Origin: a virus
Lineage: Duplodnaviria > Heunggongvirae > Uroviricota > Caudoviricetes
Reading direction: 5' to 3' (one strand)
Virus record (IMG/VR): IMGVR_UViG_3300042544_003430
DNA: 64,000 bases
Shown here piece by piece: positions 2,418 through 48,294 of this stretch. The translations under genes and the position numbers were made by a program. The notes beneath the pieces are model-generated. The model was not told the DNA's origin. It saw nothing but the letters and a program-made list of their open reading frames with translations, and did no database searches. The stretch's first letter is position 1. Every line of letters starts with the position of its first letter.

Positions 2418-2436
2418 ATGTTTCCGTACCAGTGAG

Positions 2437-2446
2437 GGATATATAA
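2437..2446 (+). promoter_or_regulatory. motif B (GGATATATAA) upstream of 2465
   Basis: gggatatataaacc 18 nt before ATG. Confidence 0.4.
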
Positions 2447-2464
2447 ACCAAAATTTAACACCCA

Positions 2465-3076: not shown

Positions 3077-3098
3077 TCTTATAACACAAACACAACAC

Positions 3099-3134
3099 GA
3101 AGGTGTCTCTACTAGGGGCACCTTCTTTGTGTGT
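3099..3134 (+). terminator. intrinsic terminator-like hairpin plus T-run
   Basis: GAAGGTG-tctctactagggg-CACCTTC followed by tttgtgtgt, just after the 2465-3076 stop. Confidence 0.45.
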
Positions 3135-3288
3135 CCTAGTCTTATATGTAGAATGGATTGGGGTGCCGCCGGGAGGGGATGTAAACCCAAAATTTGGGCC
3201 TGAGCTTGGGAGGCCCTAGGGGGATCGGGAGCAAAACTCAGGGGCAGGGCCCAGCGCGCTTTAAAGCACATGATTGACATTGCCTGCA
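3135..3288. repeat. second GC-rich island upstream of a family gene
   Basis: Local G/C runs (ggggtgccgccgggagggg, gggccctaggggg, gggcagggcccagcgcgc), unlike the flanking AT-rich sequence. Confidence 0.4.
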
Positions 3289-3300
3289 GGGATATATAAG
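3289..3300 (+). promoter_or_regulatory. motif B (GGGATATATAAG) 3 nt upstream of ATG 3304
   Basis: Same motif as upstream of 4145, 5041 and 34171. Confidence 0.45.
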
Positions 3301-3303
3301 CGA

Positions 3304-4131
3304 ATGAAGCACTTGCAGACATATAGCATCTTTGAATCCAAGACGGTACTGACTGAAGACCAGGAGACGTTCTTGTCTCTCTTCGTCGAACCTCTTGAGA
3401 ATTCGAAGGGGATGCCTGGGACTTGGTCCGTCAACCCAAAAACCGGCTTGGTTGACGTCAATGGAAACTTTGAGTGCCCACAAAGGGGATTGAAGGACTT
3501 TAAGGGAATCTCCTTTGGCCATGTGAGTGGAGCCTTTGACTGCGATCGAAACGAACTTGTCAGCTTGAAGGGTGCACCTCAGTTGGTGAGAGATTTCTCC
3601 TGCGATCGAAATGACCTTGTCAGTCTCGAGGGAGCACCTCAGTTTGTCAGGGGAGGCTTCTACTGCAACACCAATAGGCTGAAGAACTTAAAAGGTGGCC
3701 CGGTAGAAGTGGGAGGGGATTTCTCCTGCGTTGGCAATGACCTCAAGACCTTGGAGGGAAGTCCAAGAACGGTGGGAGGGGATTTCTACTGCTATTCAAA
3801 TTCAACTTCTCTTATCTCTTTAGCAGGGGCTCCAGAAACAATCGGTGGGACTTTTCACTGCGACTGGTTTGAACTTTCCAACTGGGGGGTTCCTGGCCTG
3901 CTGGAGACCATCAAGAAGGTCAACCCCAAAGCTCAGAAGATGATTTTGGACCTCCTGACTCCTGAGAAAATACAGCAGACGATTGACAGAGAGCCTGAGA
4001 AGATGGCTGTTGAATTAAAGGGGGTTTGGAAGACCCTGAAGGCGGATCCAAAATATGCAGGGCTAAAATTTCCAGAAGGAATCCAAGGGGATGCAGAGAT
4101 GCTGTCAGACCTGGACGACGTTGGTCTTTAA
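3304..4131 (+). CDS. MKH/VGL family protein with about 7 BspA-like leucine-rich repeats, C-terminal DLDDVGL
   Basis: Start set at the MKHLQTYSIFES ATG. Clear 22-aa tandem repeats of the form FxCxxNxLxSLEGAPxxVxGD. Ends ...LSDLDDVGL. Confidence 0.6.
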   Translation: MKHLQTYSIFESKTVLTEDQETFLSLFVEPLENSKGMPGTWSVNPKTGLVDVNGNFECPQRGLKDFKGISFGHVSGAFDCDRNELVSLKGAPQLVRDFSCDRNDLVSLEGAPQFVRGGFYCNTNRLKNLKGGPVEVGGDFSCVGNDLKTLEGSPRTVGGDFYCYSNSTSLISLAGAPETIGGTFHCDWFELSNWGVPGLLETIKKVNPKAQKMILDLLTPEKIQQTIDREPEKMAVELKGVWKTLKADPKYAGLKFPEGIQGDAEMLSDLDDVGL

Positions 4132-4142
4132 GGATATATAAG
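4132..4142 (+). promoter_or_regulatory. motif B (GGATATATAAG) upstream of 4145
   Basis: aaggatatataagacATG. Confidence 0.45.
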
Positions 4143-4144
4143 AC

Positions 4145-5029
4145 ATGAAGCACCTACAAACTTATCGTCGATTTGAATCTCAGCATGCCCTGAATGAAGG
4201 GGATGAATATCGCAAGATGAACATGGACTACCTCTTGAACAAATTTACTCGAGTTCCAAACAACGGGAAGTTGTACAACCCTTCGGAGGAAGACTTTGCA
4301 GATCTGCCTTGGTATCAAGCCTTGAAGGGGGCATTTCCAGATTTCAAACTGGAGAGGGTCAGAAAGAAAGGGAATGGCTACTCTTGGTTCTTCCCTGGGC
4401 CAAAACCCAAACCTCAGGCTTTCTACGAGGTTTTCAGAGAAGGTGACAGAGACTCCCCCTCTGAAGAGCCGGCCAAGATTGTATTCAACAACGATTTAAT
4501 GACTTCATCTCAGACGTTCACAATTTTACTCAACGATAAAGAGTCTTGGAATGAGCTCTTTAAGCTGCTCTATTTTGCCCAGTTTGAAGGAAAAATATCA
4601 GGACCTACTTGGAGGGGATTAAAACACATTATGGAACTCTTCTCTTCGGATTTGGAGTCTTTTTACAAGACCGGAAATCTGGGAATAGTTGGAGTGAAAA
4701 AGGATTGCAACCCTTATGGAGGACACTACGAGTCCTCAGTTGATTTTCTGAAGAACCTTCCTTATGGCATCTTTGATGATCTGAAGGCTGGATTTGTCAA
4801 GAAGATGAAAGAAGATCCTGCGGAGATTCAGTATGCAATTTCTCAGTGTCAACTTCCGAAAGGAACAGCAGAGACCGTATTTGGCACAGCTAGACTCTAC
4901 CCAGAAAATGAGGTGCTGAACTTCTACAATCTGATGAAGCAAGAAGGTTATGTTCCACCGGCCGGATTTGACGAAGAAACTGGGGAAATTTCAGATATAC
5001 ACAAATCTCTAGGGGACATCGGTCTGTAG
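4145..5029 (+). CDS. MKH/VGL family protein (C-terminal ...LGDIGL)
   Basis: N-terminus MKHLQTYRRFES, C-terminus SLGDIGL, paralogous to neighbours. Confidence 0.5.
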   Translation: MKHLQTYRRFESQHALNEGDEYRKMNMDYLLNKFTRVPNNGKLYNPSEEDFADLPWYQALKGAFPDFKLERVRKKGNGYSWFFPGPKPKPQAFYEVFREGDRDSPSEEPAKIVFNNDLMTSSQTFTILLNDKESWNELFKLLYFAQFEGKISGPTWRGLKHIMELFSSDLESFYKTGNLGIVGVKKDCNPYGGHYESSVDFLKNLPYGIFDDLKAGFVKKMKEDPAEIQYAISQCQLPKGTAETVFGTARLYPENEVLNFYNLMKQEGYVPPAGFDEETGEISDIHKSLGDIGL

Positions 5030-5038
5030 CATATAAGG
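5029..5038 (+). promoter_or_regulatory. motif B variant (GCATATAAGG) upstream of 5041
   Basis: agcatataaggacATG. Confidence 0.35.
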
Positions 5039-5040
5039 AC

Positions 5041-5619
5041 ATGAAGCACATAAAACTATTTGAAGACTACTCAGACGAAGATTTAGCAGGACTAATGTCC
5101 GATCTAGATGGGGTTGGTCTTATGAATAAAGTAATTGTTAGCTTCGGGGAAAAAATTCCAATTCCTCAAGAGGTGACCCATCCATCTTGGTGGGCAGAGC
5201 CTTGGGGGAAATTTGCCATCGTGGAGATTTACACTCCAGAGAAAGGTCCAAAGGCAGAACAACTGGCTTTCGAAAAAATTAAAAAGGGAGACTTCACTCA
5301 AGATTTATCGAAATTAGATACTGATGCTTACAAGAACAGAATTTCCAACATTCTGAAGTTTTTTAGTTCGGAGAGAATTCAGAAGGAAGCTCAAGAATCT
5401 CGGGACGTGGTGGAATTCAAAACTCGAATTCACGAAAAGTCGGGACAGATCCTATTTAACGAATGGGAAGGTATAGTCGAGAAATATCTCGAAGGAAAAT
5501 CTGAAGATTATGCGAAAGAATTTTTCAACACGCTTTGGAAATCCACCCCCAAATCAGCCAAGCAAGAGATTGCCGGATCCACAGCAATAAAAGTTTTGCA
5601 AACCGAAGTAAATAAATGA
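5041..5619 (+). CDS. MKH/VGL family protein (N-terminal MKHIKLFEDYSDE + DLDGVGL)
   Basis: First 40 nt identical to the next gene. DLDGVGL motif at residues 21-27. Confidence 0.5.
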   Translation: MKHIKLFEDYSDEDLAGLMSDLDGVGLMNKVIVSFGEKIPIPQEVTHPSWWAEPWGKFAIVEIYTPEKGPKAEQLAFEKIKKGDFTQDLSKLDTDAYKNRISNILKFFSSERIQKEAQESRDVVEFKTRIHEKSGQILFNEWEGIVEKYLEGKSEDYAKEFFNTLWKSTPKSAKQEIAGSTAIKVLQTEVNK

Positions 5620-6188
5620 AGCACATAAAACTATTTGAAGACTACTCAGACGAAGAAATCAAGTCCCTCATGGGGGACCTTGCCGAGGTTGGTCTGGGAA
5701 AGAAATGGAGGGTTGTTGGATCAATATCCACAGTTACCCCAGAAGTCAACTACTATAGAAACTGGGAAGAACAAGTCCATGAGGTTTTCATTGTGGAAGT
5801 TGCTGCAGATTCAGAGAAGACGGCATATTTAGAGGCCTTTGAAAAACTTAAATCTGGAGACTTCACTCAGAAACTTTCAGATGAAATGGAAAAATGGAAT
5901 AACGTTCTGAATAAAATTCCAGAGGTGGGAAAAATTCTTTCCAAAGACAACATCATCAAAGCTGCTAATGGAAAGGCAAATCAGCAGCCAATGGAGAGGA
6001 AGGACATTACAGGAAATCCAATCTATGACGGAAAAATTAGATGGGTCATGACTGTTGATCTTGTGGGTCCGACTGAAGAGGCAATTCTAAATAAGATAAA
6101 GTCCATGACAGGAGGTGTTGTTAGCCCAGAGATGGAGGAATTTGTTAACGAAAATGTGGGTTGGAACTTAAGAGCAGAAGAAATATGA
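5616..6188 (+). CDS. MKH/VGL family protein, tandem paralog of 5041
   Basis: ATGA start/stop overlap. MKHIKLFEDYSDEEIKSLMGDLAEVGL. Shared FEK(I/L)K(K/S)GDFTQ block. Confidence 0.5.
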   Translation: MKHIKLFEDYSDEEIKSLMGDLAEVGLGKKWRVVGSISTVTPEVNYYRNWEEQVHEVFIVEVAADSEKTAYLEAFEKLKSGDFTQKLSDEMEKWNNVLNKIPEVGKILSKDNIIKAANGKANQQPMERKDITGNPIYDGKIRWVMTVDLVGPTEEAILNKIKSMTGGVVSPEMEEFVNENVGWNLRAEEI

Positions 6189-27556: not shown

Positions 27557-27565
27557 CCGTATATT
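27557..27565 (+). promoter_or_regulatory. motif A upstream of 27583
   Basis: tcgaCCGTATATTtaataaacaagaaataaATG. Confidence 0.5.
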
Positions 27566-30049: not shown

Positions 30050-30058
30050 CCGTATATT
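30050..30058 (+). promoter_or_regulatory. motif A 21 nt upstream of the tRNA-like gene
   Basis: ctgaCCGTATATTtaaatgtaac, the same motif that precedes protein genes. Confidence 0.5.
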
Positions 30059-34138: not shown

Positions 34139-34149
34139 GGATATATAGG
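34139..34149 (+). promoter_or_regulatory. motif B (GGATATATAGG) upstream of 34171
   Basis: gttggatatataggggat. Confidence 0.4.
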
Positions 34150-34170: not shown

Positions 34171-35283
34171 ATGGCTAAAACGTTATTACCCTTTGCTCTC
34201 TATGAAGAGCTTGAAAAGATAGAATCTTTAAATCCAGATGAAATGAGAAATTTCTTGTCTTCTCTTCAGAAGTATTGTGAATCTACAGGAAAAGATTTTA
34301 CTAAAGTTTGTACTGACATTGGACTTGAAGCTCCTTCCTGGGCAGGAAAATTGACCCACAAACAGAATGTATTACTAAACTCCCTTATCTCAAGGGATTA
34401 TTACAGTGAAGAAGATGAAGGAACCTCTTGGTCAATAAATCCCGAAACCGAAAGACTTGATGTAATTGGGAAATTTAAAATATCATCTTACAATAAAGAG
34501 AAATGGGGGGAATTAATAGAAATGGGGATAAAAATTGGTAAGGTAAAAGGTTATTTCGACGTTTCCGATTGTGGCATTGATTCATCAGAGGGATTCCCTA
34601 CTGAAGTAACTGGGGATTTTAATATCAGTGGTAATAAATTAACCAATCTAGTTGGATGTCCCGTAAAAGTAGGGGGTAAATACAAATGTGATAGAAATAA
34701 ATTAACCTCTTTAGAAGGAGCACCAGAACTATCAGACAATTTTGATTGCAGCGACAATAGTGGTCTAAGAAACTTAAAAGGAGGACCTAAGGAAGTAACC
34801 TCTATTTATTATGCTAATAGATGTAATCTGGATTCTCTAGAAGGGTTTCCTAGTATAATAAGTCCTTCTATATCCATTTATGTAGACAGTAATAATCTTT
34901 ATACACTAGAGGGTATTCCTCTAAGCCCTGCAATTTCTCCTTATAGAATCAGATGCAACAAGAACCCATTAAAAAGTTCAGTTTTAACAAATGCTTACAA
35001 AGAAGCAGCTAGAACTGGAAGCTGGGCAGTTGGATATCTAAGTATGTTTACCGATCCTGAATTCATCAAAACCGGAAAAGCTCCAAAGGATCCAATTAGA
35101 GAAAAATTATCTCCTGCGAATTTAAAGAAAGAAATTGAAACCAACGGGGAAGCTTTTGTAGTTGGTCTTAAATCAATCTGGAAGGATTTCAGGGTTCAAA
35201 AAATTCTAAAAGGAATTGAAATCCCAGAGGACACCAAAGCAGACGCAGAATTGCTAGCAGATTTAGATGACGTTGGACTTTAA
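34171..35283 (+). CDS. MKH/VGL family protein with BspA-like leucine-rich repeats, C-terminal DLDDVGL
   Basis: Repeats GDFNISGNKLTNLVGCPVKVGG / KYKCDRNKLTSLEGAPELSDN... Ends LLADLDDVGL. Confidence 0.55.
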   Translation: MAKTLLPFALYEELEKIESLNPDEMRNFLSSLQKYCESTGKDFTKVCTDIGLEAPSWAGKLTHKQNVLLNSLISRDYYSEEDEGTSWSINPETERLDVIGKFKISSYNKEKWGELIEMGIKIGKVKGYFDVSDCGIDSSEGFPTEVTGDFNISGNKLTNLVGCPVKVGGKYKCDRNKLTSLEGAPELSDNFDCSDNSGLRNLKGGPKEVTSIYYANRCNLDSLEGFPSIISPSISIYVDSNNLYTLEGIPLSPAISPYRIRCNKNPLKSSVLTNAYKEAARTGSWAVGYLSMFTDPEFIKTGKAPKDPIREKLSPANLKKEIETNGEAFVVGLKSIWKDFRVQKILKGIEIPEDTKADAELLADLDDVGL

Positions 35284-35290
35284 TTAATAA

Positions 35291-35821
35291 ATGAAGTATC
35301 TAGAACTATTCGAAGCATTTAATCCCTCCGGGGATAAATTGGGATTTGGAAAACAAATTCAATCCCATATACAACAATTAGTTGGGAAGAATTTCGGAAC
35401 CCCTTATGTGGTTACTTCAGCAGAGGTAACAAGAGCTGAAAGTGAAGGGTTTGCAGATCAAAGCGGACAAGGGGATTTAGTTCTAACTTTCAAAAAAGAA
35501 TCTCCGGATGAGCTGGACGAACTTATTTCTGATTTAACCTCTGTAGGATTATCAGAAGAAAGGAAGATAGAATTTGGGTGGGACGTTATTGCTACGATGG
35601 AAACAGAATCTTCTCCAGACGGAGACCCTCTTTGGGATTTAACCTATAACATCTATACAGACTCCCCCGTAGTTTTTCTACAGTTCCCTGAAATATTCAG
35701 GGGTGAAGTAAAACACCTCTACGACATGTCTTATGGAGTTGGCAGCGTAATCAAAGGGTTAATAGAGAAAACAATAAATCGTTTAGTATACGAATCTAAA
35801 ATGGGTAATAAGAACAAGTAA
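35291..35821 (+). CDS. MKH/VGL family protein (internal DLTSVGL)
   Basis: N-terminus MKYLELFEAFNPS. LISDLTSVGL motif. Confidence 0.45.
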   Translation: MKYLELFEAFNPSGDKLGFGKQIQSHIQQLVGKNFGTPYVVTSAEVTRAESEGFADQSGQGDLVLTFKKESPDELDELISDLTSVGLSEERKIEFGWDVIATMETESSPDGDPLWDLTYNIYTDSPVVFLQFPEIFRGEVKHLYDMSYGVGSVIKGLIEKTINRLVYESKMGNKNK

Positions 35822-38139: not shown

Positions 38140-38149
38140 TAGCTAGAAA

Positions 38150-39703
38150 TTATACTAAACCTTTATCTTTCATTCCACCTTTTACCATCATTGCTGCTTC
38201 AATTCTAAGCTTTCCTTCCGGTGTATCTTTAATTTTTAGTGTTTCTTCGTTTACTCCAAATTCAGGATATTTTTCTTTGATTCTAGCATAAACCCATGAT
38301 AGGATTTCAAGATTGCTTAAACCTTGGTAGTATTTCATGATATTGAATAGATCCTGATCTGTTGCTTTTCCTCCTGACATTTCTTCAGCTTTTCTTAAAG
38401 CCATTTCAAATACTCCATAAGCTACTGAAGAGAAATCTGCTCCTTTTGAAAGTGGTTTAGCTTTTTCTGGATTCTTAACAATATCTTCCAAATCTCTATC
38501 TGAAATTCTTCTAATAACATCAAGATAAGCTTTTAATTTACCTGCCGCTGATGGACCGATAGCATCTGAGTAGATGTTGTAGATCGTATCTGTTGGTAGG
38601 TCTCTCCAATTTGTAGCTCCCTCGTCTTCCATTTCATCCTTAAGAGATGCTGCTGCATCTGTCCAAGATCTAGGGGTTGGGAATTTAAGAGTTGCTTTTT
38701 CTGTATCTAAGTAGTGGAATAATTCTGGATTTCTTTCTACGAATCCAACAATTTCTGGTTCGAAATCCCCTGGTTTTGATTTAGCCCATTTAGACCAAGA
38801 TTCAACGTCAGGAACAAAGTTAACGATATTGAATCTGTCTGCCATAGCAAAGTCAAATTCTGCAACTTCTCCAGATCCGCTAACGTCTTCTGGTCTGTTA
38901 CCAGCTGCTACGATAACCCATTTATCAGGTAATTGATAAGTTCCAACTCTACCCATTTGAACGAACTGCATGATAGCATTCAAAATATATTTGTTTGCTC
39001 TGTTCATCTCGTCCATGAATATAAATCCACCTTTACCTTCTGGTCCATTGTCCGTAGGTAAAACGATAGGAGGATTTGATCTTGTTATTCCTTTACCTGC
39101 AGAAATTAATCTTCCTTCTTCTCCATATTTAGGTTCTTCAATATCAACAACTTTAGGTATTCCTAAAAAGTCTTCCGGTGACATAAATTGCAAGTCTAAG
39201 TTAAGCATAGGAACTCCGGCTGCTTGAGCTGCTTGACCAACGATTTGGGTTTTTCCTATACCTGGAGCTCCGTAGATGAAGATAGGTTTTGCTCTACCTC
39301 CTCTTTGTTTAGATCTGTAAAGTTTACCTAACATGCTCTTAAGTTCAGTAGCGTCCACGTTTCTAACTGTTTGATCTTCTCCTGTATATTCCAGAGGAAC
39401 TTGAGCTTCATCTAGGTCAGATATTAAAGACTCATTGACAGGATTCATCTTTGCAAATTCTGTTCCTTTATATAGATTATTAATCTGAGAAACTATATTT
39501 CCGTTTGCTGGGTCAAAATAAGTAACTGAAGGTGTTCCTTTTTTTGGACCTGCAGGAATCATTTTGATAATACCATCTTTGATAGCCTTTGCGATTCTAG
39601 CTATCCATCCACCGGCTTTAGAGAGAAAATCTCCAAATCTTGATTCGTTTGTTGTGCTTCTGTTGTTTACATAATCATCGAAGCTAAATACTCTTTTTCC
39701 CAT
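38150..39703 (-). CDS. MoxR-like AAA+ ATPase
   Basis: Walker A IFIYGAPGIGKTQ and Walker B FIFMDEMNRA. Sits in a gene triad with the vWA and metallopeptidase genes. Confidence 0.6.
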   Translation of the reverse strand: MGKRVFSFDDYVNNRSTTNESRFGDFLSKAGGWIARIAKAIKDGIIKMIPAGPKKGTPSVTYFDPANGNIVSQINNLYKGTEFAKMNPVNESLISDLDEAQVPLEYTGEDQTVRNVDATELKSMLGKLYRSKQRGGRAKPIFIYGAPGIGKTQIVGQAAQAAGVPMLNLDLQFMSPEDFLGIPKVVDIEEPKYGEEGRLISAGKGITRSNPPIVLPTDNGPEGKGGFIFMDEMNRANKYILNAIMQFVQMGRVGTYQLPDKWVIVAAGNRPEDVSGSGEVAEFDFAMADRFNIVNFVPDVESWSKWAKSKPGDFEPEIVGFVERNPELFHYLDTEKATLKFPTPRSWTDAAASLKDEMEDEGATNWRDLPTDTIYNIYSDAIGPSAAGKLKAYLDVIRRISDRDLEDIVKNPEKAKPLSKGADFSSVAYGVFEMALRKAEEMSGGKATDQDLFNIMKYYQGLSNLEILSWVYARIKEKYPEFGVNEETLKIKDTPEGKLRIEAAMMVKGGMKDKGLV

Positions 39704-39736: not shown

Positions 39737-39748
39737 GGATATATATCA
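39737..39748 (+). promoter_or_regulatory. motif B variant (GGGATATATATC) upstream of 39766
   Basis: Divergent region between minus and plus blocks. Confidence 0.35.
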
Positions 39749-39765: not shown

Positions 39766-40158
39766 ATGAAAAACATTAAATTTTTTGAGGACTTTAATTC
39801 CGAAGTTCCATCCCAAGAAATCCACGAAGGACACGGAGAAATGCAGAACTACATGTTCTTTCAAAATCTTCACACGCTTAAAAATGCAATTGAAGAATTG
39901 ATTGAATTAGATCCTGTTAAAGTCGATGGTATTCTTGCAGACGGTCACGGATGGGCTTTAGATCACATTGCTACATCAGTAGATGACGTTGAGGAGGTTT
40001 ATCACTTCTTATCTAACTCTATTGAAATGGGACATGAAGGGGAAGAACACGGGGAAGACCACGAAGAAGGTCACGAAGAAATGGGGATGGAAATCCAAGT
40101 TTCACCAGACGAGGTAGAAGTTGAAACTGAAGACGAAGACGAAGAAGACGAAGACTAA
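39766..40158 (+). CDS. acidic His/Glu-rich protein
   Basis: N-terminus MKNIKFFEDFNSE. Tail HEGEEHGEDHEEGHEEMG...ETEDEDEEDED. Confidence 0.4.
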   Translation: MKNIKFFEDFNSEVPSQEIHEGHGEMQNYMFFQNLHTLKNAIEELIELDPVKVDGILADGHGWALDHIATSVDDVEEVYHFLSNSIEMGHEGEEHGEDHEEGHEEMGMEIQVSPDEVEVETEDEDEEDED

Positions 40159-40164
40159 TTAAAA

Positions 40165-41049
40165 ATGCCAGATCAGCCAAGCATACTAGGGGATGGAAAC
40201 ATCCAAGTTAAATATGGTCCTGAGATGGAAAATATTTACCCCTTTCTTACCACATTATCTGGTGAGAAAAGGGTTCTCTTTATTACCACTAGCAATCGTG
40301 GTGAATACATTTCAAGCAAGGGAGAAAAACCAAAATCGACTAGACTCGCAGAGCACTTAGCAGATCTTCTAAAAGAAAAAGGAGTAGAGGTAGTAACAAT
40401 GGATGCTGCCAAACTTAAAATCTACAATTGTCTTGGATGTGTTAGTGAGCTGAAGGGGAATATGTGTGGATCTCCTAAATCTAAATTAAAGGATCCTGAA
40501 AAAAATCCCCATGGTCATTTGAAATGCTGGGCCTCTCTGGATCATAAAGACGACGAATTATGGAAAATAGCAAATGAATTGTATAACTCTGATGCTGTTA
40601 TATTCTTTGCTTCCAACAGATGGGGAAATCCAAATGCAATTTATCAAAAATTAATCGAAAGACTTGACTGGATAGAAAGCTCTTATACAACATATAATGG
40701 CCAAAATACAGTTAAAAATAAAAAAGCAGGAATGGTTCTGCTAGGCCAAAATTGGAGAGTTCAAGAATCTTTAGAGGTTCAGTATCACGTTTTGAATTTC
40801 TTCGGATTTGAAACACCCGAAGAACTATTTATGGGATGGCAATTCACTAGAGATACAGACGACGAAGAACAAAGATCGTACCAGGAATCTTCAAGTTCTT
40901 TTGAACAATCTTGGGGGATGGAAATTCCAAACAAAGAAGAAACCATTAAAAAAGAAGGTGGTTTGGTTAAAGAATCCACCGAGAGTAAATTTACTAACGT
41001 CAAGGTTTCAGACTTTAGCAGTTTTATATCTAAATTAAACTGGAAATAA
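40165..41049 (+). CDS. flavodoxin-like fold / NAD(P)H-dependent FMN reductase-like protein
   Basis: KRVLFITTSNRGEYISS ... DAVIFFASNRWGNPNAIYQKLIERLDW resembles the NADPH_FMN_red/Flavodoxin_2 pattern. Confidence 0.4.
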   Translation: MPDQPSILGDGNIQVKYGPEMENIYPFLTTLSGEKRVLFITTSNRGEYISSKGEKPKSTRLAEHLADLLKEKGVEVVTMDAAKLKIYNCLGCVSELKGNMCGSPKSKLKDPEKNPHGHLKCWASLDHKDDELWKIANELYNSDAVIFFASNRWGNPNAIYQKLIERLDWIESSYTTYNGQNTVKNKKAGMVLLGQNWRVQESLEVQYHVLNFFGFETPEELFMGWQFTRDTDDEEQRSYQESSSSFEQSWGMEIPNKEETIKKEGGLVKESTESKFTNVKVSDFSSFISKLNWK

Positions 41050-41250
41050 ATGATCAGAAAAGATACTCATATCTTTAAGGTCAAAGTCGACGGAAGTGAG
41101 GATCCTCACATCATCAAAGACATTTATATTACTGAACCTGGGCATATTCTAGTTTCAGTTTACAACGAAAAAAAGAAGGTGTGTACTAATTACACCGTGT
41201 CTAAAATTCAGGAAGTTCTTCCTGACAAAATCAAAATTATTAAGAATTAA
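41050..41250 (+). CDS. small hypothetical protein (66 aa)
   Basis: ORF only. Confidence 0.3.
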   Translation: MIRKDTHIFKVKVDGSEDPHIIKDIYITEPGHILVSVYNEKKKVCTNYTVSKIQEVLPDKIKIIKN

Positions 41251-42005
41251 AGATCTGGTAAACCACCAATCTTTTTAGCTCTATTCTTATAGAGAGTGTA
41301 GATTTCTTGTTTCTTGTTAGCAGGAACAATTCCTTTAGCTATTCTATCATTTAAGAATTTGATGATCATTTCTTGAAAAGGTCTTTTTCTAGTTTTTGCC
41401 TCTGCATAGATTCCATGTAGATTAGCATCAACCTCATCTTTTAGTTTATAGTACTTATAATAGTTTTCTGGATTTGATTGGATTTTAATCCTCTGAGCAT
41501 AATTTCTCTTCATTGCCTTAGCAGGAATAGTATTCCATCCTCTCTGGGTTAAATGCTCTATCTCATGTCTGATTAAATTTCTCAACTCTGGTGCAAGTTC
41601 TACATAACATTGAGGTTCAGTAGCAGGATTTACAGTAAGTTCAATATAGAGAATTGCTGGGTCCTCGTCTGCATTACCGTCCAGAATAAAAGATTCGGTG
41701 TATGTAGGAGCTTCGTCCCTTACGATAACCAATTTAACAAAGACGTCAAGATTTGTACCCGGATCTAAATAGTTTCCAACGTCCAAGAATTGCATGTCGT
41801 CTATTAGAGTTTCAAAACTTGGAACATCGTCTTTTTCGGTGTACCTAATTTTTACTCCTTCATATTCACCATTTGGTGTATTACTATCTTTTATGAGTTT
41901 CATAGCATCGGCTGAAATTTGACCAACTAATCTGTCATACTTTCCTTCGAAAAGAAAACCCTCAGATTCGGAAATAAAATCAGCAAAAGACTTAGTGAAA
42001 CTCAT
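41247..42005 (-). CDS. hypothetical protein with HExxH motif
   Basis: IRHEIEHLTQRG. Confidence 0.35.
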   Translation of the reverse strand: MSFTKSFADFISESEGFLFEGKYDRLVGQISADAMKLIKDSNTPNGEYEGVKIRYTEKDDVPSFETLIDDMQFLDVGNYLDPGTNLDVFVKLVIVRDEAPTYTESFILDGNADEDPAILYIELTVNPATEPQCYVELAPELRNLIRHEIEHLTQRGWNTIPAKAMKRNYAQRIKIQSNPENYYKYYKLKDEVDANLHGIYAEAKTRKRPFQEMIIKFLNDRIAKGIVPANKKQEIYTLYKNRAKKIGGLPDL

Positions 42006-42417
42006 CCAATTTTTTAATTTTAAAAATTAAAGATTCCATGGCTCCCGGATATTTTCCGTTGTCGCTAGATCTCTCTGGATATTCGGTTAAATAAGGATCT
42101 TCTAATTTCACTTTCTTACCTTTATGATTAGAAACGGTTTTATCCTCGTAGTAAAGAAGATCTAAATCCATTAGGGATCCAAGCATTTTATCAACTTCAA
42201 AATCTTCTTCTTCTAAACCGGTTAGATTTATAAACATTTCTATGGCATATTTCGGATCTATCCAACCCATCCCAGAAGTAACTATATCAATGATATTATC
42301 TGTAGCGGATTTAGGATCCATAGATTCGTTCAAAAACTCACCATATTCTTTAATATTGATTCCCATTTTTATAAAAGTTTTTTTGCTTCTTCGAAATCTT
42401 CTGCAGTTAAATTCCAT
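41992..42417 (-). CDS. hypothetical protein (141 aa)
   Basis: ORF overlapping its neighbours on the minus strand. Confidence 0.35.
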   Translation of the reverse strand: MEFNCRRFRRSKKTFIKMGINIKEYGEFLNESMDPKSATDNIIDIVTSGMGWIDPKYAIEMFINLTGLEEEDFEVDKMLGSLMDLDLLYYEDKTVSNHKGKKVKLEDPYLTEYPERSSDNGKYPGAMESLIFKIKKLDEFH

Positions 42418-43115
42418 CCAGCTATTTTTTCTTTGATGAATTTCTTAGCTTCTGGATATGTTGCGTCAGTGTTATCTTTTAAATATGCTAACAATTTTTC
42501 TCTAATCGCCGGATGAATTCCTTCAGATTCTAAAATTTCTTCCGGAAACTCAAATTCTAAGCTTTCGGTTGTCAATTTAATTTCTGATAAAATCTTTTTC
42601 AATTCCTCCTGGACTTTTATTTTATCTCTTCTAGATGCTCCTCCTTGACCGATGAAAACATTAAATTCTTCGATCATATCATCGGTTAATTCCTCATCCA
42701 GTTCAACTAATGGTTTTTCTGAATTTTCCCAATCGTCTGTTCCAAATCCTATTTCCATCACCGGAACGTCGTTAGCAGCAGCTTCTATTCCCATTGAATC
42801 TGGATCTTGGTATTCTTGAGCATCTTCGTCCCAAATCTTGTAATTTTCCTCGAACTCCGGAGAGGTTGAATCAAAATAGAAAATGTAGTTTTTACCTGTT
42901 TTTTGATCTTTTAATGTTGCAAACTCAAGAAAATCTGTAGATGTTAATTTTAAGTTGTGCTTGGAGGGATTGATTCCTCTAAGATCCTCAACTTCTCTAT
43001 AATCATCTTCTCTGTACCCGGGAGGGAGGTTTCCGGATGGAGAGGTAGTTACACCAAATAAGTCTGCCTCGTTATTTTTTAGATGAAATTCATCGAAAGA
43101 TAAAATTTTTGCCAT
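42369..43115 (-). CDS. acidic hypothetical protein (248 aa)
   Basis: ORF. A motif B copy lies on the minus strand at 43132-43144, upstream of its start. Confidence 0.4.
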   Translation of the reverse strand: MAKILSFDEFHLKNNEADLFGVTTSPSGNLPPGYREDDYREVEDLRGINPSKHNLKLTSTDFLEFATLKDQKTGKNYIFYFDSTSPEFEENYKIWDEDAQEYQDPDSMGIEAAANDVPVMEIGFGTDDWENSEKPLVELDEELTDDMIEEFNVFIGQGGASRRDKIKVQEELKKILSEIKLTTESLEFEFPEEILESEGIHPAIREKLLAYLKDNTDATYPEAKKFIKEKIAGWNLTAEDFEEAKKLL

Positions 43116-43283
43116 TGATTTAAATTAATTTGTTTATATATCCCAGTCACATCAAAATCTTTTGTTTGAAATATTTCAATTATTTTTTAATTTTAAGAAA
43201 CTTTTCTATAAAAACCATCTAAAAGAATTACTTATATTCCCTGGAGAAGTATCTATTATTATCTAGGAGCCGCCGTTAAGGTC

Positions 43284-43317
43284 TCAACAAAAAACCCAAA
43301 CTCGAAAGTCTGGGTTT
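43284..43317 (-). terminator. minus-strand intrinsic terminator
   Basis: On the minus strand: AAACCCA-gactttcgag-TGGGTTT followed by TTTTGTT, downstream of the 43336-43941 gene. Confidence 0.4.
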
Positions 43318-43335
43318 ACATAAGGTCTATTCTTC

Positions 43336-43941
43336 TTATTTTAAACTTAGAAGGTATTTAGTTTGATCTATCAGACTCAAAATTTCCTGAATTATATTAA
43401 AGATTTCCGGATCTTTATTTTCATCGAATGCAGAGATACATTCTTCTCTGTAACAAACATCTAAATGAGCTATGAATCTAGGAAGTCCGTCTGGGGATTC
43501 TGGAGAATCGTAGTTATCTAATTTTAATGTTCTTTCCGAATCATTAAAAACGGGTCTACCATATTTTCCCATGATTGATTCTATCAAAGTATCTGAGATT
43601 TCAATAAACTCTTCAAAGAAATTATCTAAAGCTTTGTGCTCGGAATATGAATTGGTCTGCCAATGCAAAAGTTTTGCTTGAGTCATATTTTGAAGAACCC
43701 TACTTGCAACCTGGCTTGTTTTAGAGCTAGGGGTTTGGGTCTTATCTGGAGCTGCACTAGGAGTTTTGGGAATACTAATAGGTTTTAGAGGGATAATTTC
43801 CGCATCAGTCTCTACCTCCGGACCTTTGGGTTGTTCTGGGTTATATTTTCTTTTACCTGCAGGTTCTATAATTTCACCAAAGGCACTTAGATTTAATACG
43901 TTGTCCGCCATATATTTTTTTTCTTTTTTGTTATATATCAA
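43336..43941 (-). CDS. hypothetical protein (201 aa)
   Basis: ORF. A minus-strand motif B-like sequence (TGATATATAAC) lies at 43930-43944. Confidence 0.4.
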   Translation of the reverse strand: MIYNKKEKKYMADNVLNLSAFGEIIEPAGKRKYNPEQPKGPEVETDAEIIPLKPISIPKTPSAAPDKTQTPSSKTSQVASRVLQNMTQAKLLHWQTNSYSEHKALDNFFEEFIEISDTLIESIMGKYGRPVFNDSERTLKLDNYDSPESPDGLPRFIAHLDVCYREECISAFDENKDPEIFNIIQEILSLIDQTKYLLSLK

Positions 43942-43967
43942 GTACGACCGAAATTTTTTTAAAAATG

Positions 43968-43976
43968 CCGTATATT
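43968..43976 (+). promoter_or_regulatory. motif A upstream of 43985
   Basis: atgCCGTATATTaaatagaaATG. Confidence 0.45.
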
Positions 43977-43984
43977 AAATAGAA

Positions 43985-44452
43985 ATGGAACAGATGTTTG
44001 ACGAATGGAGAAGTCTAGGTGATCGTAAGAAAATTGATCCTATGAAACACCTAGCAGAATGGACTTTAGTAAATCCTGACTACAAGATTTACATTGGTTG
44101 TGACTCAAGTAATATGGGTGACAAGACCACGTATGCTACCGTAATTGTTCTACACAAGGAGAATAAAGGTGGACACGTTATCTACAGCAGAAAGTCGGAG
44201 CCCAGAATTAAATCCAGATATGAGAGATTATGGAAAGAAGTTGAACTCAGTGTTTCTGCTGCTCATCTGTTAGAAATGTGGGGATTCGGAAAACCGGACT
44301 TCATTGATATTGATTTAAACCCAGATCCTAGATACCAATCTAATACTTTACTAGCTTCTGCAGTTGGTATGGTGGAATCACTTGGAATCAAGGCTAGATG
44401 GAAATCTAAATCACCTTGGGCAATTTCTATTGCTGACTCAATTTGCAGATAG
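43985..44452 (+). CDS. hypothetical protein, possibly RNase H-like fold
   Basis: YKIYIGCDSS...TTYATVIVLH pattern resembles YkuK/DUF458-like proteins. Weak. Confidence 0.3.
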   Translation: MEQMFDEWRSLGDRKKIDPMKHLAEWTLVNPDYKIYIGCDSSNMGDKTTYATVIVLHKENKGGHVIYSRKSEPRIKSRYERLWKEVELSVSAAHLLEMWGFGKPDFIDIDLNPDPRYQSNTLLASAVGMVESLGIKARWKSKSPWAISIADSICR

Positions 44453-44484
44453 GGGAATATATAGTTTAAATCCATTAAAAAACT

Positions 44485-44745
44485 ATGGAATTAAACAAAC
44501 CAGATCTTGATTTTTCCAATCCGCAAGAAGTCTTTAATACTACAGATAGAATAATCACAAATATAAAATCTCTAGAAAAGGAATTAGAAGCTATCCAATC
44601 TGCTTGTCCTCATCCAGACTACACGGTTAAAAATTTTAACATCCATGGAAATAATAATTTTTCTGTGAAGAAAGTTTGTGATCTGTGTCAAGCAGATATT
44701 GGATACCCAACCCAAGAGGAAGTAAATTCCTGGATTAGATCCTAA
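44485..44745 (+). CDS. small protein with possible zinc ribbon (CPHP...C.LC)
   Basis: Preceded by motif B-like GGAATATATAG. Confidence 0.3.
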   Translation: MELNKPDLDFSNPQEVFNTTDRIITNIKSLEKELEAIQSACPHPDYTVKNFNIHGNNNFSVKKVCDLCQADIGYPTQEEVNSWIRS

Positions 44746-44794
44746 TAAAATGAATCATTATGGATCATCTGATCTATAATAAAGAAATATAATT

Positions 44795-46924
44795 ATGACT
44801 GAAAACAATATAATTGGAGAGAACTTATTGGGAGATATCTTATACACTCCTCCTAAAATTTCAATGGGACCTATCGATGACGATGATATTGATGATGTTC
44901 CAAGCTACAAATCTAATCCAACCTCTTCAACCACTCCTGCCCTAGATTCTTTTAGCAGGGATTTAACAGCTCTAGCTGCAAAGGGAGAACTTGATCCAAT
45001 TGTAGGAAGAGATTCTGAGATCGAAAGAGTTTCTCAAATTCTAGGTCGTAGGAAAAAGAACAATCCAGTTCTAATAGGGGAACCCGGGGTTGGTAAATCA
45101 GCAATTGCCGAAGGACTAGCACTTAGAATTTTCCAAAGAAAGGTTTCTAGAAATCTACTAAATAAGAGAGTAGTTAGTTTGGATATGGGTCTAATTGTTG
45201 CCGGAACTAAATACAGGGGTCAGTTTGAAGAGAGAATGAAGTCCATTATGGATGAGCTAAGAAAAAATCCAGATGTAATTATTTTCATCGATGAATTGCA
45301 CACTCTAGTTGGTGCCGGTGGTTCATCAGGATCTTTGGATGCTTCTAACATGGTAAAACCTGCACTAGCAAGAGGGGAATTTCAATGTGTTGGAGCAACA
45401 ACTCTAAATGAATATAGACAGTATATCGAGAAAGACGGAGCACTAGAAAGAAGATTTCAAAAAGTTATCATTGAAGCTCCAACTGCAGACGAGACAATTA
45501 TAATTCTAAACAATATCAAGGCTAAGTACGAGGATCATCATAATGTTCAATACACTGACGATGCTATCATCAATTGTGTTAAGTTAACAGAAAGATACAT
45601 TACCGACAGAAACTTCCCAGACAAAGCTCTAGATGCTTTAGACGAAGCGGGTAGCAGATCTCAATTAACCCAAGTTAAGGTTCCTGATGCATTGGTTAAT
45701 TTAGAGAAGAATCTAGAGAAAACTACAGAGGAGAAAAAGAAGTGTGTTACCAAACAGGACTATGAAGGAGCTGCCAAATATAGAGATCTGGAAAGAAAGA
45801 TTAAAGCTGGCATCGAATCGGAAACTAAAGCCTGGGAGCAAAAGCTAAAAGAGAAGAAGAAAATCGTAGACGGTGAAAAAGTTGCTGAAGTAGTTTCTTT
45901 GATGACTGGGATTCCTCTACAAAAGATCAGTCAGGACGAAAACGAAAGACTTGCTAAAATGGCTGAAGCTTTAAGAGATAGAGTTATTGGACAAAATGAA
46001 GCAGTTGAAAAAATATCAAAGGCAATTTTAAGAAATAGAATCGGTTTAAAAGACCCAAATCGTCCAATCGGATCATTTGTTTTTCTAGGACCTACCGGAG
46101 TTGGTAAAACCCAATTGGCTAAGGAATTGGCTAAAATGGTATTCGGTGATGCCGATGCAATGATTAGAGTTGATATGTCCGAGTACATGGAGAAATTCAA
46201 TTCAACCAAATTGATTGGAGCTCCTCCAGGATATGTTGGACACGAAGATGGTGGTCAATTAACAGAGAAAGTTAGAAGAAAGCCATATTCAGTAGTTCTA
46301 TTTGACGAGATTGAAAAGGCCCATCCGGATATTTTCAACTCTCTATTACAAATTCTAGACGAGGGTATGATTACCGATGGATTAGGAAGAAAGATTAATT
46401 TTAAAAATTGTTTAATCATCTTGACTTCTAACGTTGGTCAAAGAAAGGCTGCCGAATTTGGAGGAGGTGTAGGATTCAAATCTTTAGATAAGAGCAATGT
46501 GGAAAAAGAATCAAAGATCACGATCAGAAAAGAATTGGAAAAAACTTTCTCTCCGGAATTTCTAAACAGAATAGATGAAATTATAAACTTTAATTCTCTA
46601 ACTCAAGATGATCTAATTAAGATTATAGACGTTGAAATTAAAAAGATGACTCCGAGATTTGAAGATCTAGGGTTTAAATTAGTCATCTCTAAGGATCTAA
46701 AAGAAAAGATAGCAGAAAGAGGATATGACCCCAAATTTGGAGCAAGACCTCTGAAAAGACTTCTTCAAAAATATATCGAAGACACTATTGCAGAGCTCTT
46801 TATCCAAAAGAAAGTTGAATCAGGTTCTAAGATTACTCTATCCCTAGATTCTTCCAAAGATGCTGAGATCGAACCCCCAGTAAAGGTAAGAATCACAAAT
46901 CCAAAAAAGGGCTCAGAAGAGTAA
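44795..46924 (+). CDS. ClpC/ClpA-like double-AAA+ chaperone ATPase lacking Clp_N repeats
   Basis: D1 IGRDSEIERV...LIGEPGVGKSAIAEGLA. UVR-like KQDYEGAAKYRDLERK. D2 FLGPTGVGKTQLAKELA. C-terminal ClpB_D2-small-like region. Confidence 0.8.
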   Translation: MTENNIIGENLLGDILYTPPKISMGPIDDDDIDDVPSYKSNPTSSTTPALDSFSRDLTALAAKGELDPIVGRDSEIERVSQILGRRKKNNPVLIGEPGVGKSAIAEGLALRIFQRKVSRNLLNKRVVSLDMGLIVAGTKYRGQFEERMKSIMDELRKNPDVIIFIDELHTLVGAGGSSGSLDASNMVKPALARGEFQCVGATTLNEYRQYIEKDGALERRFQKVIIEAPTADETIIILNNIKAKYEDHHNVQYTDDAIINCVKLTERYITDRNFPDKALDALDEAGSRSQLTQVKVPDALVNLEKNLEKTTEEKKKCVTKQDYEGAAKYRDLERKIKAGIESETKAWEQKLKEKKKIVDGEKVAEVVSLMTGIPLQKISQDENERLAKMAEALRDRVIGQNEAVEKISKAILRNRIGLKDPNRPIGSFVFLGPTGVGKTQLAKELAKMVFGDADAMIRVDMSEYMEKFNSTKLIGAPPGYVGHEDGGQLTEKVRRKPYSVVLFDEIEKAHPDIFNSLLQILDEGMITDGLGRKINFKNCLIILTSNVGQRKAAEFGGGVGFKSLDKSNVEKESKITIRKELEKTFSPEFLNRIDEIINFNSLTQDDLIKIIDVEIKKMTPRFEDLGFKLVISKDLKEKIAERGYDPKFGARPLKRLLQKYIEDTIAELFIQKKVESGSKITLSLDSSKDAEIEPPVKVRITNPKKGSEE

Positions 46925-46934
46925 TATATAGAGC

Positions 46935-47129
46935 ATGATTTTTATAGATTTAAAGAAGGAGAAATCTCTGGATTCAGCTTTAAAGAAGCTAAAAAATAAA
47001 TTTTCTGAACGTAAGACAAAAGACGAACTTAACGAGAGAAGAGAATTCACCAAACCATCTGTGAGAAGAAGAAATCAAATAAGAGACGCAAAGTATAGGC
47101 AATCTATCCGTACGTCCGAGATAAATTAA
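46935..47129 (+). CDS. rpsU: ribosomal protein bS21 homolog
   Basis: KSLDSALKKLKNKFSERKTKDELNERREFTKPSVRRRNQ resembles the bS21 pattern (E.ALRRFKR...K.G...E.R.R.EF.KPS..RK). Preceded by motif B-like TAATATATAGAG. Confidence 0.55.
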   Translation: MIFIDLKKEKSLDSALKKLKNKFSERKTKDELNERREFTKPSVRRRNQIRDAKYRQSIRTSEIN

Positions 47130-47131
47130 AT

Positions 47132-47998
47132 TTGAAAAATATAATTCTATATGAGGAATTTTCCGACGGATTGAACCGTTTGAGATCGATTTTCGAATCT
47201 CTAGAATCAAATCCTATTGCTAACATAGAGGTTTATAACCGAAATATGGAAGCATCCTATCCGGATAAATTATTCTTTTTAGATATTATAAATCCGGATG
47301 TTATCGTAGATTTTGGGTGTGCAGACGGAACGATCCTTTCCAAGATGAAGGAGAAAAATCCAGATGTTAAATTGATAGGATACGATCTTAGTAAAGCTAT
47401 GCTTGCTAAAGCAAGAGCTAAACTAGGACCAGACGTTTTATTAACCGATTCTTGGAGTGAGGTTCAATCTGAATTGGAATCTTATGATAAACCAGCTCTT
47501 GTATTATCTTCGGTAATTCACGAAGTTTATTCTTATTCTCATCCTAAAGAAGTTAAAAAATTCTGGGAGGATAGAGTATTTGGTGGAGACTTTAAATGGA
47601 TAGTAATCAGAGACATGATTCCTTCTGTTGAAATGAGTAGAAAAGAAGCATCCGAATTCCAGGACGATGTTGACAAAGTTAAATCTGCGGCAGATCCAAA
47701 ATACTTAAAGTCTTACGAAGAAAAGTGGGATGATATTGGAAGCAGCTATAAATTCTTAGCTCACTTTTTACTAAAATATAAATTCACAGATAACTGGACT
47801 AGAGAAGTAGCAGAAAACTATCTTCCTCTTTCTCTTGAAACTCTATACAAGAAAATACCTCCGGGATATGAAATTATTTTTGAAGATAATTTTGTTCTTC
47901 CCTATCTAAAAAAAGAAGTCAAAAAGGACTTCGATGTAGACATTAAGCACACTACACATGCTAAAATGATTATAGAAAATAAAAATTTTGAAAAATGA
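47132..47998 (+). CDS. class I SAM-dependent methyltransferase
   Basis: VIVDFGCADGTILSKM motif I. N-terminus MKNIILYEEFSDG matches the family-type N-terminal peptide. Confidence 0.5.
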   Translation: MKNIILYEEFSDGLNRLRSIFESLESNPIANIEVYNRNMEASYPDKLFFLDIINPDVIVDFGCADGTILSKMKEKNPDVKLIGYDLSKAMLAKARAKLGPDVLLTDSWSEVQSELESYDKPALVLSSVIHEVYSYSHPKEVKKFWEDRVFGGDFKWIVIRDMIPSVEMSRKEASEFQDDVDKVKSAADPKYLKSYEEKWDDIGSSYKFLAHFLLKYKFTDNWTREVAENYLPLSLETLYKKIPPGYEIIFEDNFVLPYLKKEVKKDFDVDIKHTTHAKMIIENKNFEK

Positions 47999-48294
47999 AA
48001 AATCTAGCACTCTATGAATCTTTCACCGAATCTTTAAACGAATCAAGAACAAGAAAGAATCTAATGCACGAACTTCTTAACATTCCAGAAGATAAAAAAA
48101 TCTCTGACATTTATAAGAGCGGTAAGAAATTAGCAGAAGAATTGGTTGCAGCAATCAAGAAGAGCAACATAGTTCCAGAAAAAGAGGTTCAGAAAAAAGC
48201 TACCTCGATGCTAGCCTTTGTTGGTAACTGGCCTAATGATCCTAAGAATTCCGTTTTTGATGTTGCTCTGAGACACGTCAAATCTCTCTTTTAA
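47995..48294 (+). CDS. hypothetical protein (99 aa)
   Basis: N-terminus MKNLALYESFTES. ATGA overlap with the upstream gene. Confidence 0.35.
   Translation: MKNLALYESFTESLNESRTRKNLMHELLNIPEDKKISDIYKSGKKLAEELVAAIKKSNIVPEKEVQKKATSMLAFVGNWPNDPKNSVFDVALRHVKSLF

Follow-up and report, generated by a model that had tools for sequence, protein, structure and literature searches.

Why should genes with nothing else in common begin with the same ten amino acids? This question is raised by a 64,000-nucleotide stretch of a virus of the Caudoviricetes (IMG/VR record IMGVR_UViG_3300042544_003430; the whole analysed stretch is referred to here as the window), in which a first-pass annotation had noticed a shared N-terminal decapeptide on three functionally unrelated genes and had suggested a targeting or propeptide signal, for packaging into the capsid or for export, or alternatively a conserved translation-initiation context. 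All three N-termini are indeed encoded at the sites it had named: MKNIKFFEDFNSE at 39766, MKNIILYEEFSDG at 47132 (from a TTG start) and MKNLALYESFTES at 47995. We find that this peptide, termed the tag in the following, is real, modular and under selection at the level of the peptide, and that it is restricted to viral contigs. The best explanation, which we advance tentatively and by analogy, is that it would be a capsid-targeting or propeptide tag working like the capsid-targeting sequence (CTS) of phage T4.

The tag is an N-terminal peptide of about ten residues, MK-x-I/L-x-x-F/Y...E, present on at least 13 mostly unrelated proteins of the window: Met is usually followed by Lys, position 4 is aliphatic and position 7 aromatic, a second aromatic residue often follows three positions further on, and Glu comes next, after which a variable linker begins. 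For N-terminal counts, 80 genes were called in the window and expected numbers were taken from the frequency of the motif inside the same proteins. The core [FY][EDSAG][DESA][FY] starting at residue 7 or 8 occurs in 10 of the 80 genes against 0.48 expected (Poisson P about 1e-10) and a stricter form in 8 genes against 0.14 expected, with a pattern that was set post hoc, after the data had been seen, the margin being large and the position fixed. Apart from the three genes above, the core is carried by seven others (5041, 5616 and 35291 and, on the minus strand, a MoxR-like ATPase gene starting at 39703 and the genes starting at 42005, 42366 and 43115), and looser forms of the tag open the genes at 1617, 3304, 4145 and 34171. 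BLASTP comparison with the first 14 residues cut off (E < 0.01) divided 15 tagged proteins of the window into 12 groups: 1617, 3304 and 34171 belong to one family, 5041 and 5616 to another, 4145 is a singleton, and the 39766, 47132 and 47995 proteins showed no similarity among themselves or with the paralogue families. The Pfam domains of tagged proteins also differ, with AAA_5 and Methyltransf_12 in the window and RNA_lig_T4_1 in the related phage genome LR756502.1, and searches of Pfam and PHROGs gave no match for the 39766, 47995, 5041, 3304 and 35291 proteins or for the minus-strand genes 41247..42005, 41992..42366 and 42369..43115. The presence of the tag on unrelated genes is therefore not only borne out but wider than had been noted.

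Homologues and structure models show how the tag is built into these proteins. The 39766 gene (39766..40158, plus strand) encodes an acidic His-rich protein of 130 residues, which opens with the tag MKNIKFFEDFNS (residues 1-12, 39766-39801), continues with a variable linker and then a conserved helical domain (residues 28-90), and ends in an acidic tail. Across 120 homologues with an overall identity of 54-90%, MKNIKFFE[ED]F[EGN]S is nearly invariant, with M1, N3, F7, E8 and F10 invariant in an alignment of 35 sequences, and the segment directly after the tag is variable and contains indels; the AlphaFold2 (AF2) model has a mean predicted local distance difference test score (pLDDT) of 53, with residues 1-25 below 50. 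The gene at 47132..47998 (plus strand) encodes a 288-residue S-adenosylmethionine-dependent methyltransferase (Pfam Methyltransf_12/25) with the tag MKNIILYEEF at 47132-47161. Its TTG start is supported, because its alignment with the orthologue in LR756502.1 starts at residue 28 and hence before the first ATG (residue 39), and because three homologue clusters were called from the same start; on some contigs, automatic gene calls took the downstream ATG. This family has more than 100 homologues, nearly all opening with M[KRN]ILNWxLFLEE, and in the AF2 model (mean pLDDT 83) residues 1-13 lie below 50 and are without secondary structure. The third gene (47995..48294, plus strand) encodes a 99-residue protein with the tag MKNLALYESF at 47995-48024, and its orthologue in the syntenic locus L007 opens with MQNLDTYNDFVQDLNES.

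The tag of the MoxR-like AAA+ ATPase (517 residues; 38150..39703, minus strand; Pfam AAA_5; N-terminus MGKRVFSFDDYVNN) is encoded at about 39662-39703 and shows a further property: nearly all full-length members among 120 homologues open with M-x(1-12)-[KR]-[VI]-x-x-F-x-x-[FY]-[VIL]-N-E, with a second conserved [TVI]-N-E-G after this first motif, and the motif lies at a variable distance from Met, with shifts of up to about 10 residues. A single-protein search of IMG/VR with this ATPase gave no close relatives. Orthologues in L007 and LR756502.1 retain their tags, and, compared with T4 RnlA, the tagged LR756502.1 RNA ligase is extended by about 22 residues at its N-terminus. Given the disordered N-termini of the AF2 models, the indel-rich linker and this addition to the RNA ligase, the architecture is therefore that of a tag, a flexible linker and an unrelated domain. 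We also considered whether the tag is the N-terminal element of a common fold, which is ruled out by the pLDDT values below 50 at the N-termini, the absence of BLASTP similarity outside the tag in most pairs and the differing Pfam domains.

The sequence of LR756502.1 was taken whole, with 958 simple open reading frame (ORF) calls: 104 of these open with MK[HNYKRQ][ILVF]xx[FYW] (the strict tag), against 0.8 expected from the internal frequency, typical examples being MKHLKKYNES, MKHLKTYKIFES and MKHLKIFEDF. A broader pattern collects 206 ORFs, against a background of about 3-5% in related phages that lack the tag, and the tagged share of the LR756502.1 proteins amounts to 10-20%. Positions 4 (L/I) and 7 (Y/F) are the most conserved, and the residue after the conserved Glu is mostly S, G, N or E. 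Without their tags, the 104 strict-tag proteins fall into 87 BLASTP clusters; among the ten largest tagged proteins a Pfam domain was detected in one only (T4 RNA ligase 1), the other nine being without match. A subset of the tagged proteins bears an extra motif, IKDILLELxDDGFxV, 20-35 residues past the tag.

Beyond this genome, DNA coding for MKHLKx[YF]NE was found in at least 120 stretches of IMG/VR contigs (up to 676 kb in length, 20-42% G+C), and 18% of the ORFs in 80 IMG/VR loci that were read carry the strict tag. The same scan of 596 Gb of bacterial and archaeal genomes returned 9 matches, which is about chance level. Since 9 cellular matches in 596 Gb stand against at least 120 viral ones, the tag is not a generic N-terminus of AT-rich genes. 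The first-pass annotation had named a chance frequency in an AT-rich genome as the finding that would speak against its motif; the internal-frequency controls together with the cellular and viral counts rule out that the tag is such a chance product. The capsid-gene regions of LR756504, LR756500 and Lak-A2 do not contain the tag. In the literature on capsid targeting sequences, N-terminal motifs of huge phages, prohead protease propeptides and Mahaphage we found no description of it.

Is it the peptide or the underlying nucleic acid that is conserved? Leu4 of the tags is encoded by TTA (42), CTA (22), TTG (6) and CTT (6), and GAA and GAG are used for Glu in the tags as in the rest of the genome. 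Because synonymous codons vary freely, selection acts on the peptide, and the earlier statement that codons differ between copies, with conservation at the peptide level, proved correct: synonymous sites vary and codons follow genome-wide usage. This synonymous variation also rules out duplication at the DNA level as the origin of the tag. An extra nucleotide bias is seen at codons 2-3 only, with AAA at codon 2 in 83% versus 61% and a C-ending codon 3 in 56% versus about 28% expected.

A related proposal is that cassette shuffling has left the tag behind as a vestige: in hyperplastic regions, a promoter and a stub of 5' coding sequence would have recombined time and again onto new genes, and the peptide itself would have little function. 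Several traits of the tagged genes would suit such a history: in LR756502.1 they are small (median about 150 residues), 45 of the 104 lie within the first 100 kb and are partly in tandem, and they often have a promoter box of their own; in the window, 5041 and 5616 are identical over their first 13 codons; and a 304-residue tagged ORF of LR756502.1 (22663-23577, minus strand; locus L011) holds a second complete tag (MKYLKAYKLFES) at about residue 135, like an in-frame fusion of two cassettes. However, the tag is near-invariant in orthologues that have diverged by 40-50%, while the adjoining linker diverges and gains indels, which indicates purifying selection on the peptide; moreover, tag DNA that differs at synonymous sites would be a poor substrate for homologous recombination. 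We thus consider shuffling a very improbable explanation.

The tagged genes also share a promoter-like box. In the window, GATATATA occurs 10 times against 3.2 expected, a number that none of 100 shuffles reached, and all tagged transcription units but 5616 are preceded by a box of this type (class 2), including the unit formed by the gene for ribosomal protein bS21, the methyltransferase gene and 47995. An example is the palindromic GATATATATC box at 39738..39747, between the divergent tagged genes 39703 (minus strand) and 39766 (plus strand); others lie at 1604-1611, 3291-3298, 4133-4140, 5030-5037, 34140-34147, 43135-43142 (minus strand) and 46923-46930. This box before tagged units is a probable late promoter. 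A second box, (GA)CCGTATATT (CCGTATAWT), occurs 14 times against 0.73 expected, always on the plus strand (284-292, 628-636, 6942-6950, 7864-7872, 9376-9384, 16789-16797, 17157-17165, 20291-20299, 22723-22731, 23374-23382, 27557-27565, 30050-30058, 32116-32124 and 43968-43976): all but the copy at 20291, which is inside a coding region, stand just before a gene start, namely of metabolic or other untagged genes and never of tagged ones, and it probably represents an early or middle promoter class. Units opening with a tagged gene make up 8 of 14 behind an ATATATA-type box versus 0 of 14 behind a CCGTATATT box (Fisher P 0.002).

The window box GATATATA is similar to the AATATATA box of LR756502.1, which lies upstream of the portal, protease, capsid, sheath and terminase genes and precedes 57% of tagged versus 23% of untagged genes (P 8e-12). 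In other Bacteroidetes phages, phage bS21 is reported to be expressed late together with structural genes (PMC9723584). From the box shared with the LR756502.1 head genes and from this published late expression of bS21, we infer that the tagged genes are probably late genes.

The position of the box bears on the suggestion that the conserved start is a translation-initiation context. In this case the tagged genes would be late cassettes with the box 4-6 nt before the ATG, transcribed into near-leaderless mRNAs whose first codons are tuned for Bacteroidota ribosomes, perhaps those carrying the phage bS21. The LR756502.1 data lend this some weight: 88 of the 206 tagged genes (43%) have an ATATATA box ending no more than 9 nt before the ATG, 61% of the genes with such a box are tagged, and tag and near-leaderless spacing are associated with an odds ratio of 9 (P 7e-30). 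In the LR756502.1 loci L011-L024, the box mostly ends 4-6 nt before the tagged ATG (no more than 9 nt in 52 of 59), which implies nearly leaderless late mRNAs, and the leaders of head genes measure 17-25 nt. The AAA bias at codon 2, the C-ending bias at codon 3 and the location of the bS21 gene in one unit with two tagged genes point the same way. Nevertheless, from codon 4 on synonymous usage is genome-like and yet the amino acids are conserved; 72 of the 206 tagged genes of LR756502.1 are operon-internal and without box, and 39766, 34171 and the minus-strand gene starting at 43115 have leaders of 20-25 nt in the window. A mechanism based on the start register is further disfavoured because in the MoxR homologues the motif shifts by up to about 10 residues relative to Met, and a constraint on RNA would not predict aromatic residues at fixed spacing followed by Glu. 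The initiation context of the first-pass annotation is hence weakened, with the spacing of the box in 43% of tagged genes as the part that stands, and as a full account of the tag we regard it as rather improbable.

Which known peptide does the tag resemble? The T4 internal proteins IPII and IPIII open with MKTYQEFIAE (PMC9026906, PMC8442874), and mutants of this CTS assign residues 4 and 7 to targeting and residues 8 and 10 to processing, with the protease cutting after Glu (PMC9026906). Both peptides are N-terminal, about ten residues long and borne by unrelated proteins (12 groups in the window, 87 clusters in LR756502.1); both start with MK, are hydrophobic or aromatic at position 4 and aromatic at position 7, and have Glu at about 8-11 with a hydrophobic residue two positions upstream; and small variable genes are found in both systems. 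A subset of tags, for example MKIRKFTEFINEE and MGINIKEYGEFLNES, fits Y-x-x-F-I-x-E exactly. In T4, exchange of the Glu for Asp prevents cleavage, though not targeting. We fixed a regular expression from T4 alone, [FYW]..[FYW][ILVM].E starting at residues 2-11, which finds 4 N-terminal matches in T4 (IPII, IPIII, gp61.1 and gp61.4; 0.73 expected). The same expression matched 29 proteins of LR756502.1 against 3.5 expected (P 2e-17, about eightfold) and two of the window, encoded by the minus-strand genes starting at 42005 and 42366, against 0.22 expected; in about 174 ORFs sampled from PTm1, LR756504, LR756500 and Lak-A2, which are without the tag, there were 0 matches.

A head module of the T4 type is encoded by LR756502.1: a portal protein (222545-224260; Pfam Portal_T4, 196 bits), a capsid protein (227452-229167; Pfam Gp23, 99.5 bits), a T4-type terminase (202525-204663) and a protease-scaffold protein of 699 residues (225272-227371), the N-terminus of which aligns weakly to T4 gp21 with a shared GIF...V.NRN.R.Y (phmmer against T4 gp21, E = 0.004). 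The capsid protein is most similar to those of other Mahaphages and next to those of Lak phages; the proteins of PTm1, MaF61 and Chryseobacterium phages, which are cultured jumbo phages of Bacteroidota, are more distant, as are that of Sphingomonas phage PAU and cyanophage gp23. An invariant W, an invariant E and an invariant [IL]-x-E-N (QINEN in LR756502.1) are common to the capsid propeptides of T4 and of four phages of this group, and the [IL]-x-E-N element resembles the FINE[SEN] ending of many tags.

Of the two targets named by the first-pass annotation, packaging into the capsid is thus the better fit, judged by analogy from the likeness to the T4 CTS, the T4-type head of the relative and the shared box; the export part of that suggestion is not supported. 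By the same analogy, we infer a sequence of late synthesis, scaffold binding, cleavage, packaging and injection: tagged proteins would be made late, the tag would bind the scaffolding core of the assembling prohead, and the capsid shell would enclose the tagged proteins, which a gp21-type prohead protease would probably trim after the conserved Glu, so that the mature proteins would be carried in the head and may pass into the host together with the DNA.

A number of observations weigh against packaging by a T4-like route. In case of the tag itself, a matrix built from the 104 strict tags and run against 268 T4 ORFs did not place IPII or IPIII among its top 12, with IPI ranking 5th at a negative score, and for this reason we liken the tag to the T4 CTS as a pattern and do not claim membership of one family. 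The dominant consensus, MKHLKxYNES or MKHLKxYKIFES, is not T4-like by position matrix, and the 39766, 47132 and 47995 tags have the aromatic-x-x-aromatic core but lack [ILVM]-x-E directly after it, with Glu at position 8 (L-Y-E or F-F-E). In case of the head, the Peptidase_S77 match of the protease-scaffold protein reaches 20.2 bits, below the Pfam cut-off of 27, and belongs to the relative and not to the window genome; head genes belonging to the genome of the window itself were not encountered, and the 10 kb read beyond each window end contained none; and in Tenacibaculum phage PTm1 and Flavobacterium phage MaF61, which are cultured and have the same head type, the tag is absent from the regions of 40-50 kb that were read. 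The near-leaderless spacing described above, which would allow a role in the start context, has to be added here. Concerning the cargo, there are 100-200 tagged genes per genome versus a handful in T4, and the tagged proteins are acidic and include large enzymes, unlike the basic internal proteins of T4: loading 100-200 proteins, a MoxR-like ATPase and RNA ligase among them, would be unprecedented.

The tag may instead be a docking motif for some other partner, such as a phage chaperone or ATPase, a replication or assembly compartment or a machinery for timed degradation, without any loading of the capsid. A tag that is conserved as a peptide, modular and unstructured is compatible with any docking motif; the MoxR-like ATPase, RNA ligase 1 and the methyltransferase are not known as virion cargo; 10-20% of a proteome is a large share for cargo of a capsid; and the acidity of tagged proteins, so unlike T4 internal proteins, also counts in favour of docking. 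Candidate partners are encoded close by: tagged genes of the window flank a cluster of MoxR, HExxH peptidase (DUF2201_N) and VWA-like genes and a ClpB-like gene, and a DnaJ gene is also in the vicinity. However, the candidate MoxR-like ATPase is itself tagged, and docking leaves without explanation why a small residue comes after the conserved Glu, why tags match the T4-derived expression and why the promoter box is shared with head genes. We consider docking possible, if on the unlikely side, and retain capsid targeting as the tentative best explanation of the tag.

Export was the other localisation that had been proposed. Sec, Tat, lipoprotein and type IX signals are likewise terminal sorting signals on unrelated proteins, and the window does encode a protein with a type IX sorting domain; however, the tag has no hydrophobic core, twin arginine or lipobox, and in type IX secretion a folded domain at the C-terminus serves as the signal. 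D and E are enriched about 1.4-fold in residues 13-32 of tagged proteins, which are more acidic than the rest (median isoelectric point 5.2 versus 5.9) and contain a transmembrane-like segment in about 1% of cases. A Sec, Tat or lipoprotein signal peptide is ruled out: the h-region of 7-15 residues is missing and an acidic segment follows the tag. A further parallel is offered by the cargo-loading peptides of encapsulins, short terminal peptides that direct unrelated enzymes into a shell with the HK97 fold; these are usually C-terminal, have another consensus and remain uncleaved, and the shell is a cellular nanocompartment and not a virion. In phiKZ-like giant phages and SPN3US, the propeptides of head and ejection proteins are long and are not known to share a decapeptide, and the reported cleavage motif is [AGS]-x-E. 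These phages have a T4-related head protease and many cleaved head proteins, a likeness to the system proposed here, and differ in that the abstracts on them mention no uniform N-terminal tag (PMC5694885, PMC10052503). The T4 CTS and the head propeptides of giant phages are already known from the literature.

What, then, is the phage that carries it? The window is densely coding, has 32-48% G+C and contains no tRNA genes. Type IX secretion is specific to Bacteroidota, and the gene at 11644-16737 encodes a protein of 1,697 residues that combines a signal-like N-terminal sequence with numerous PKD repeats and a CHU_C domain for type IX secretion sorting, and this protein points to a Bacteroidota host and to display on the host surface. 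The window also encodes a ClpB-like ATPase, a trio of MoxR, DUF2201 peptidase and VWA-like proteins, enzymes of nicotinamide adenine dinucleotide and purine metabolism and a long glycosyltransferase cluster. At 62% identity, the ClpB-like protein has counterparts in LR756502.1 (642 kb) and LR745206.1 (635 kb); in the source study of those phages, the genomes above 634 kb form the Mahaphage clade, with predicted replication in Bacteroidetes (PMC7162821). Homologues in LR756502.1 were found for 25 of 80 window proteins (26-73% identity), tagged orthologues among them, and metagenome contigs of up to about 390-400 kb carry further homologues. From these gene contents we conclude that the window is probably part of a huge phage of the T4 superfamily that infects Bacteroidota and is related to the Mahaphage clade, the assignment to a huge Bacteroidota phage being based on the protein with the type IX secretion domain and on the bS21 gene.

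Huge phages have hundreds of genes without known function, and a common tag places 10-20% of these into one functional class, with a testable prediction of where their products go. The most far-reaching form of the proposal is that huge Bacteroidota phages of an uncultivated but widespread lineage mark 10-20% of their proteins with a decapeptide in order to load at least 100 of them into the prohead for delivery with the DNA. This we hold to be unlikely as a whole; the arsenal, comprising the MoxR-like ATPase, RNA ligase, the methyltransferase and many orphan proteins, would lie far above the load of any known phage. If capsid loading is true, a very large and fast-evolving protein cargo would be delivered, changing the view of host takeover and counter-defence, and the tag would provide a handle for the packaging of foreign proteins, as the T4 sequence has done. 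Should it instead prove to be a signal for docking or expression, it would still be an undescribed organising principle, present in viral contigs of up to 676 kb and in many of the metagenomes from which the IMG/VR matches come.

The remaining tagged genes of the window are arranged as follows. On the minus strand, 42369..43115 (248 residues, N-terminus MAKILSFDEFHLKNNE; the L007 orthologue opens with MKRILSFEDYSNRANE) heads a three-gene operon of tagged genes behind the GATATATA box at 43135-43142. Within it, 41992..42366 encodes a 124-residue protein with the N-terminus MGINIKEYGEFLNES, a start also used by metagenome gene calls (L007 orthologue: MTKNILEYNYFINES), and 41247..42005 one of 252 residues with the N-terminus MSFTKSFADFISESEG (L007 orthologue: MTLIKNFEGFLFEG), both matching the T4-derived expression. 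On the plus strand, 34171..35821 is a unit of two tagged genes, 34171-35283 (loose form, MAKTLLPFALYEELE) and 35291-35821 (MKYLELFEAF), behind the GATATATA box at 34140-34147. The paralogue region (1617..6188, plus strand) comprises the tagged genes 1617-2417, 3304-4131 and 4145-5029 (MKH[IL]xx[FY]xxFES) together with 5041-5619 and 5616-6188 (MKHIKLFEDY), and an untagged ferritin-family gene with a Pfam match (2465-3076) lies between tagged genes of this region. The bS21 gene (46935..47129, plus strand; Pfam Ribosomal_S21 on the L007 orthologue) has a AATATATA box at 46923-46930 and heads the unit that runs on into the tagged methyltransferase gene and then the tagged 99-residue gene.

A second motif, [ML]xDL[DEAG][DEG]VGL, forms the extreme C-terminus of the tagged 1617-2417, 3304-4131 and 34171-35283 proteins (2397-2417, 4111-4131 and 35263-35283), with the variant SLGDIGL ending 4145-5029 (at 5009-5029), and also occurs about 20 residues into 5041 and 5616 and 12 residues into 6281 (5101-5130, 5676-5705 and 6314-6343); LR756502.1 has a single, chance-like match. 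The minus-strand cluster 36159-39703, amid tagged genes, consists of the tagged MoxR-like ATPase, a DUF2201_N protein (HExxH, KOW domain, PGDKPGDM repeat) and a VWA-like DUF2201 protein, and the HExxH DUF2201_N peptidase could be an alternative enzyme for processing of the tag. A degenerate form of the tag, MADNVLNLSAFGEIIE, opens the minus-strand gene 43336-43911, which is preceded by a GATATATA box; its product matches Pfam DUF5856 and phrog_858 'starvation-inducible transcriptional regulator', the name that the T4 record likewise gives to the rI.-1 product. About 2.4 kb past the right end of the window, at 9268-11376 of locus L030, a 702-residue PG_binding_1 protein has a tag-like start, MRKVYDFSTFNFIYEAE, and a tagged wall-binding protein of this kind would fit an enzyme delivered by the virion.

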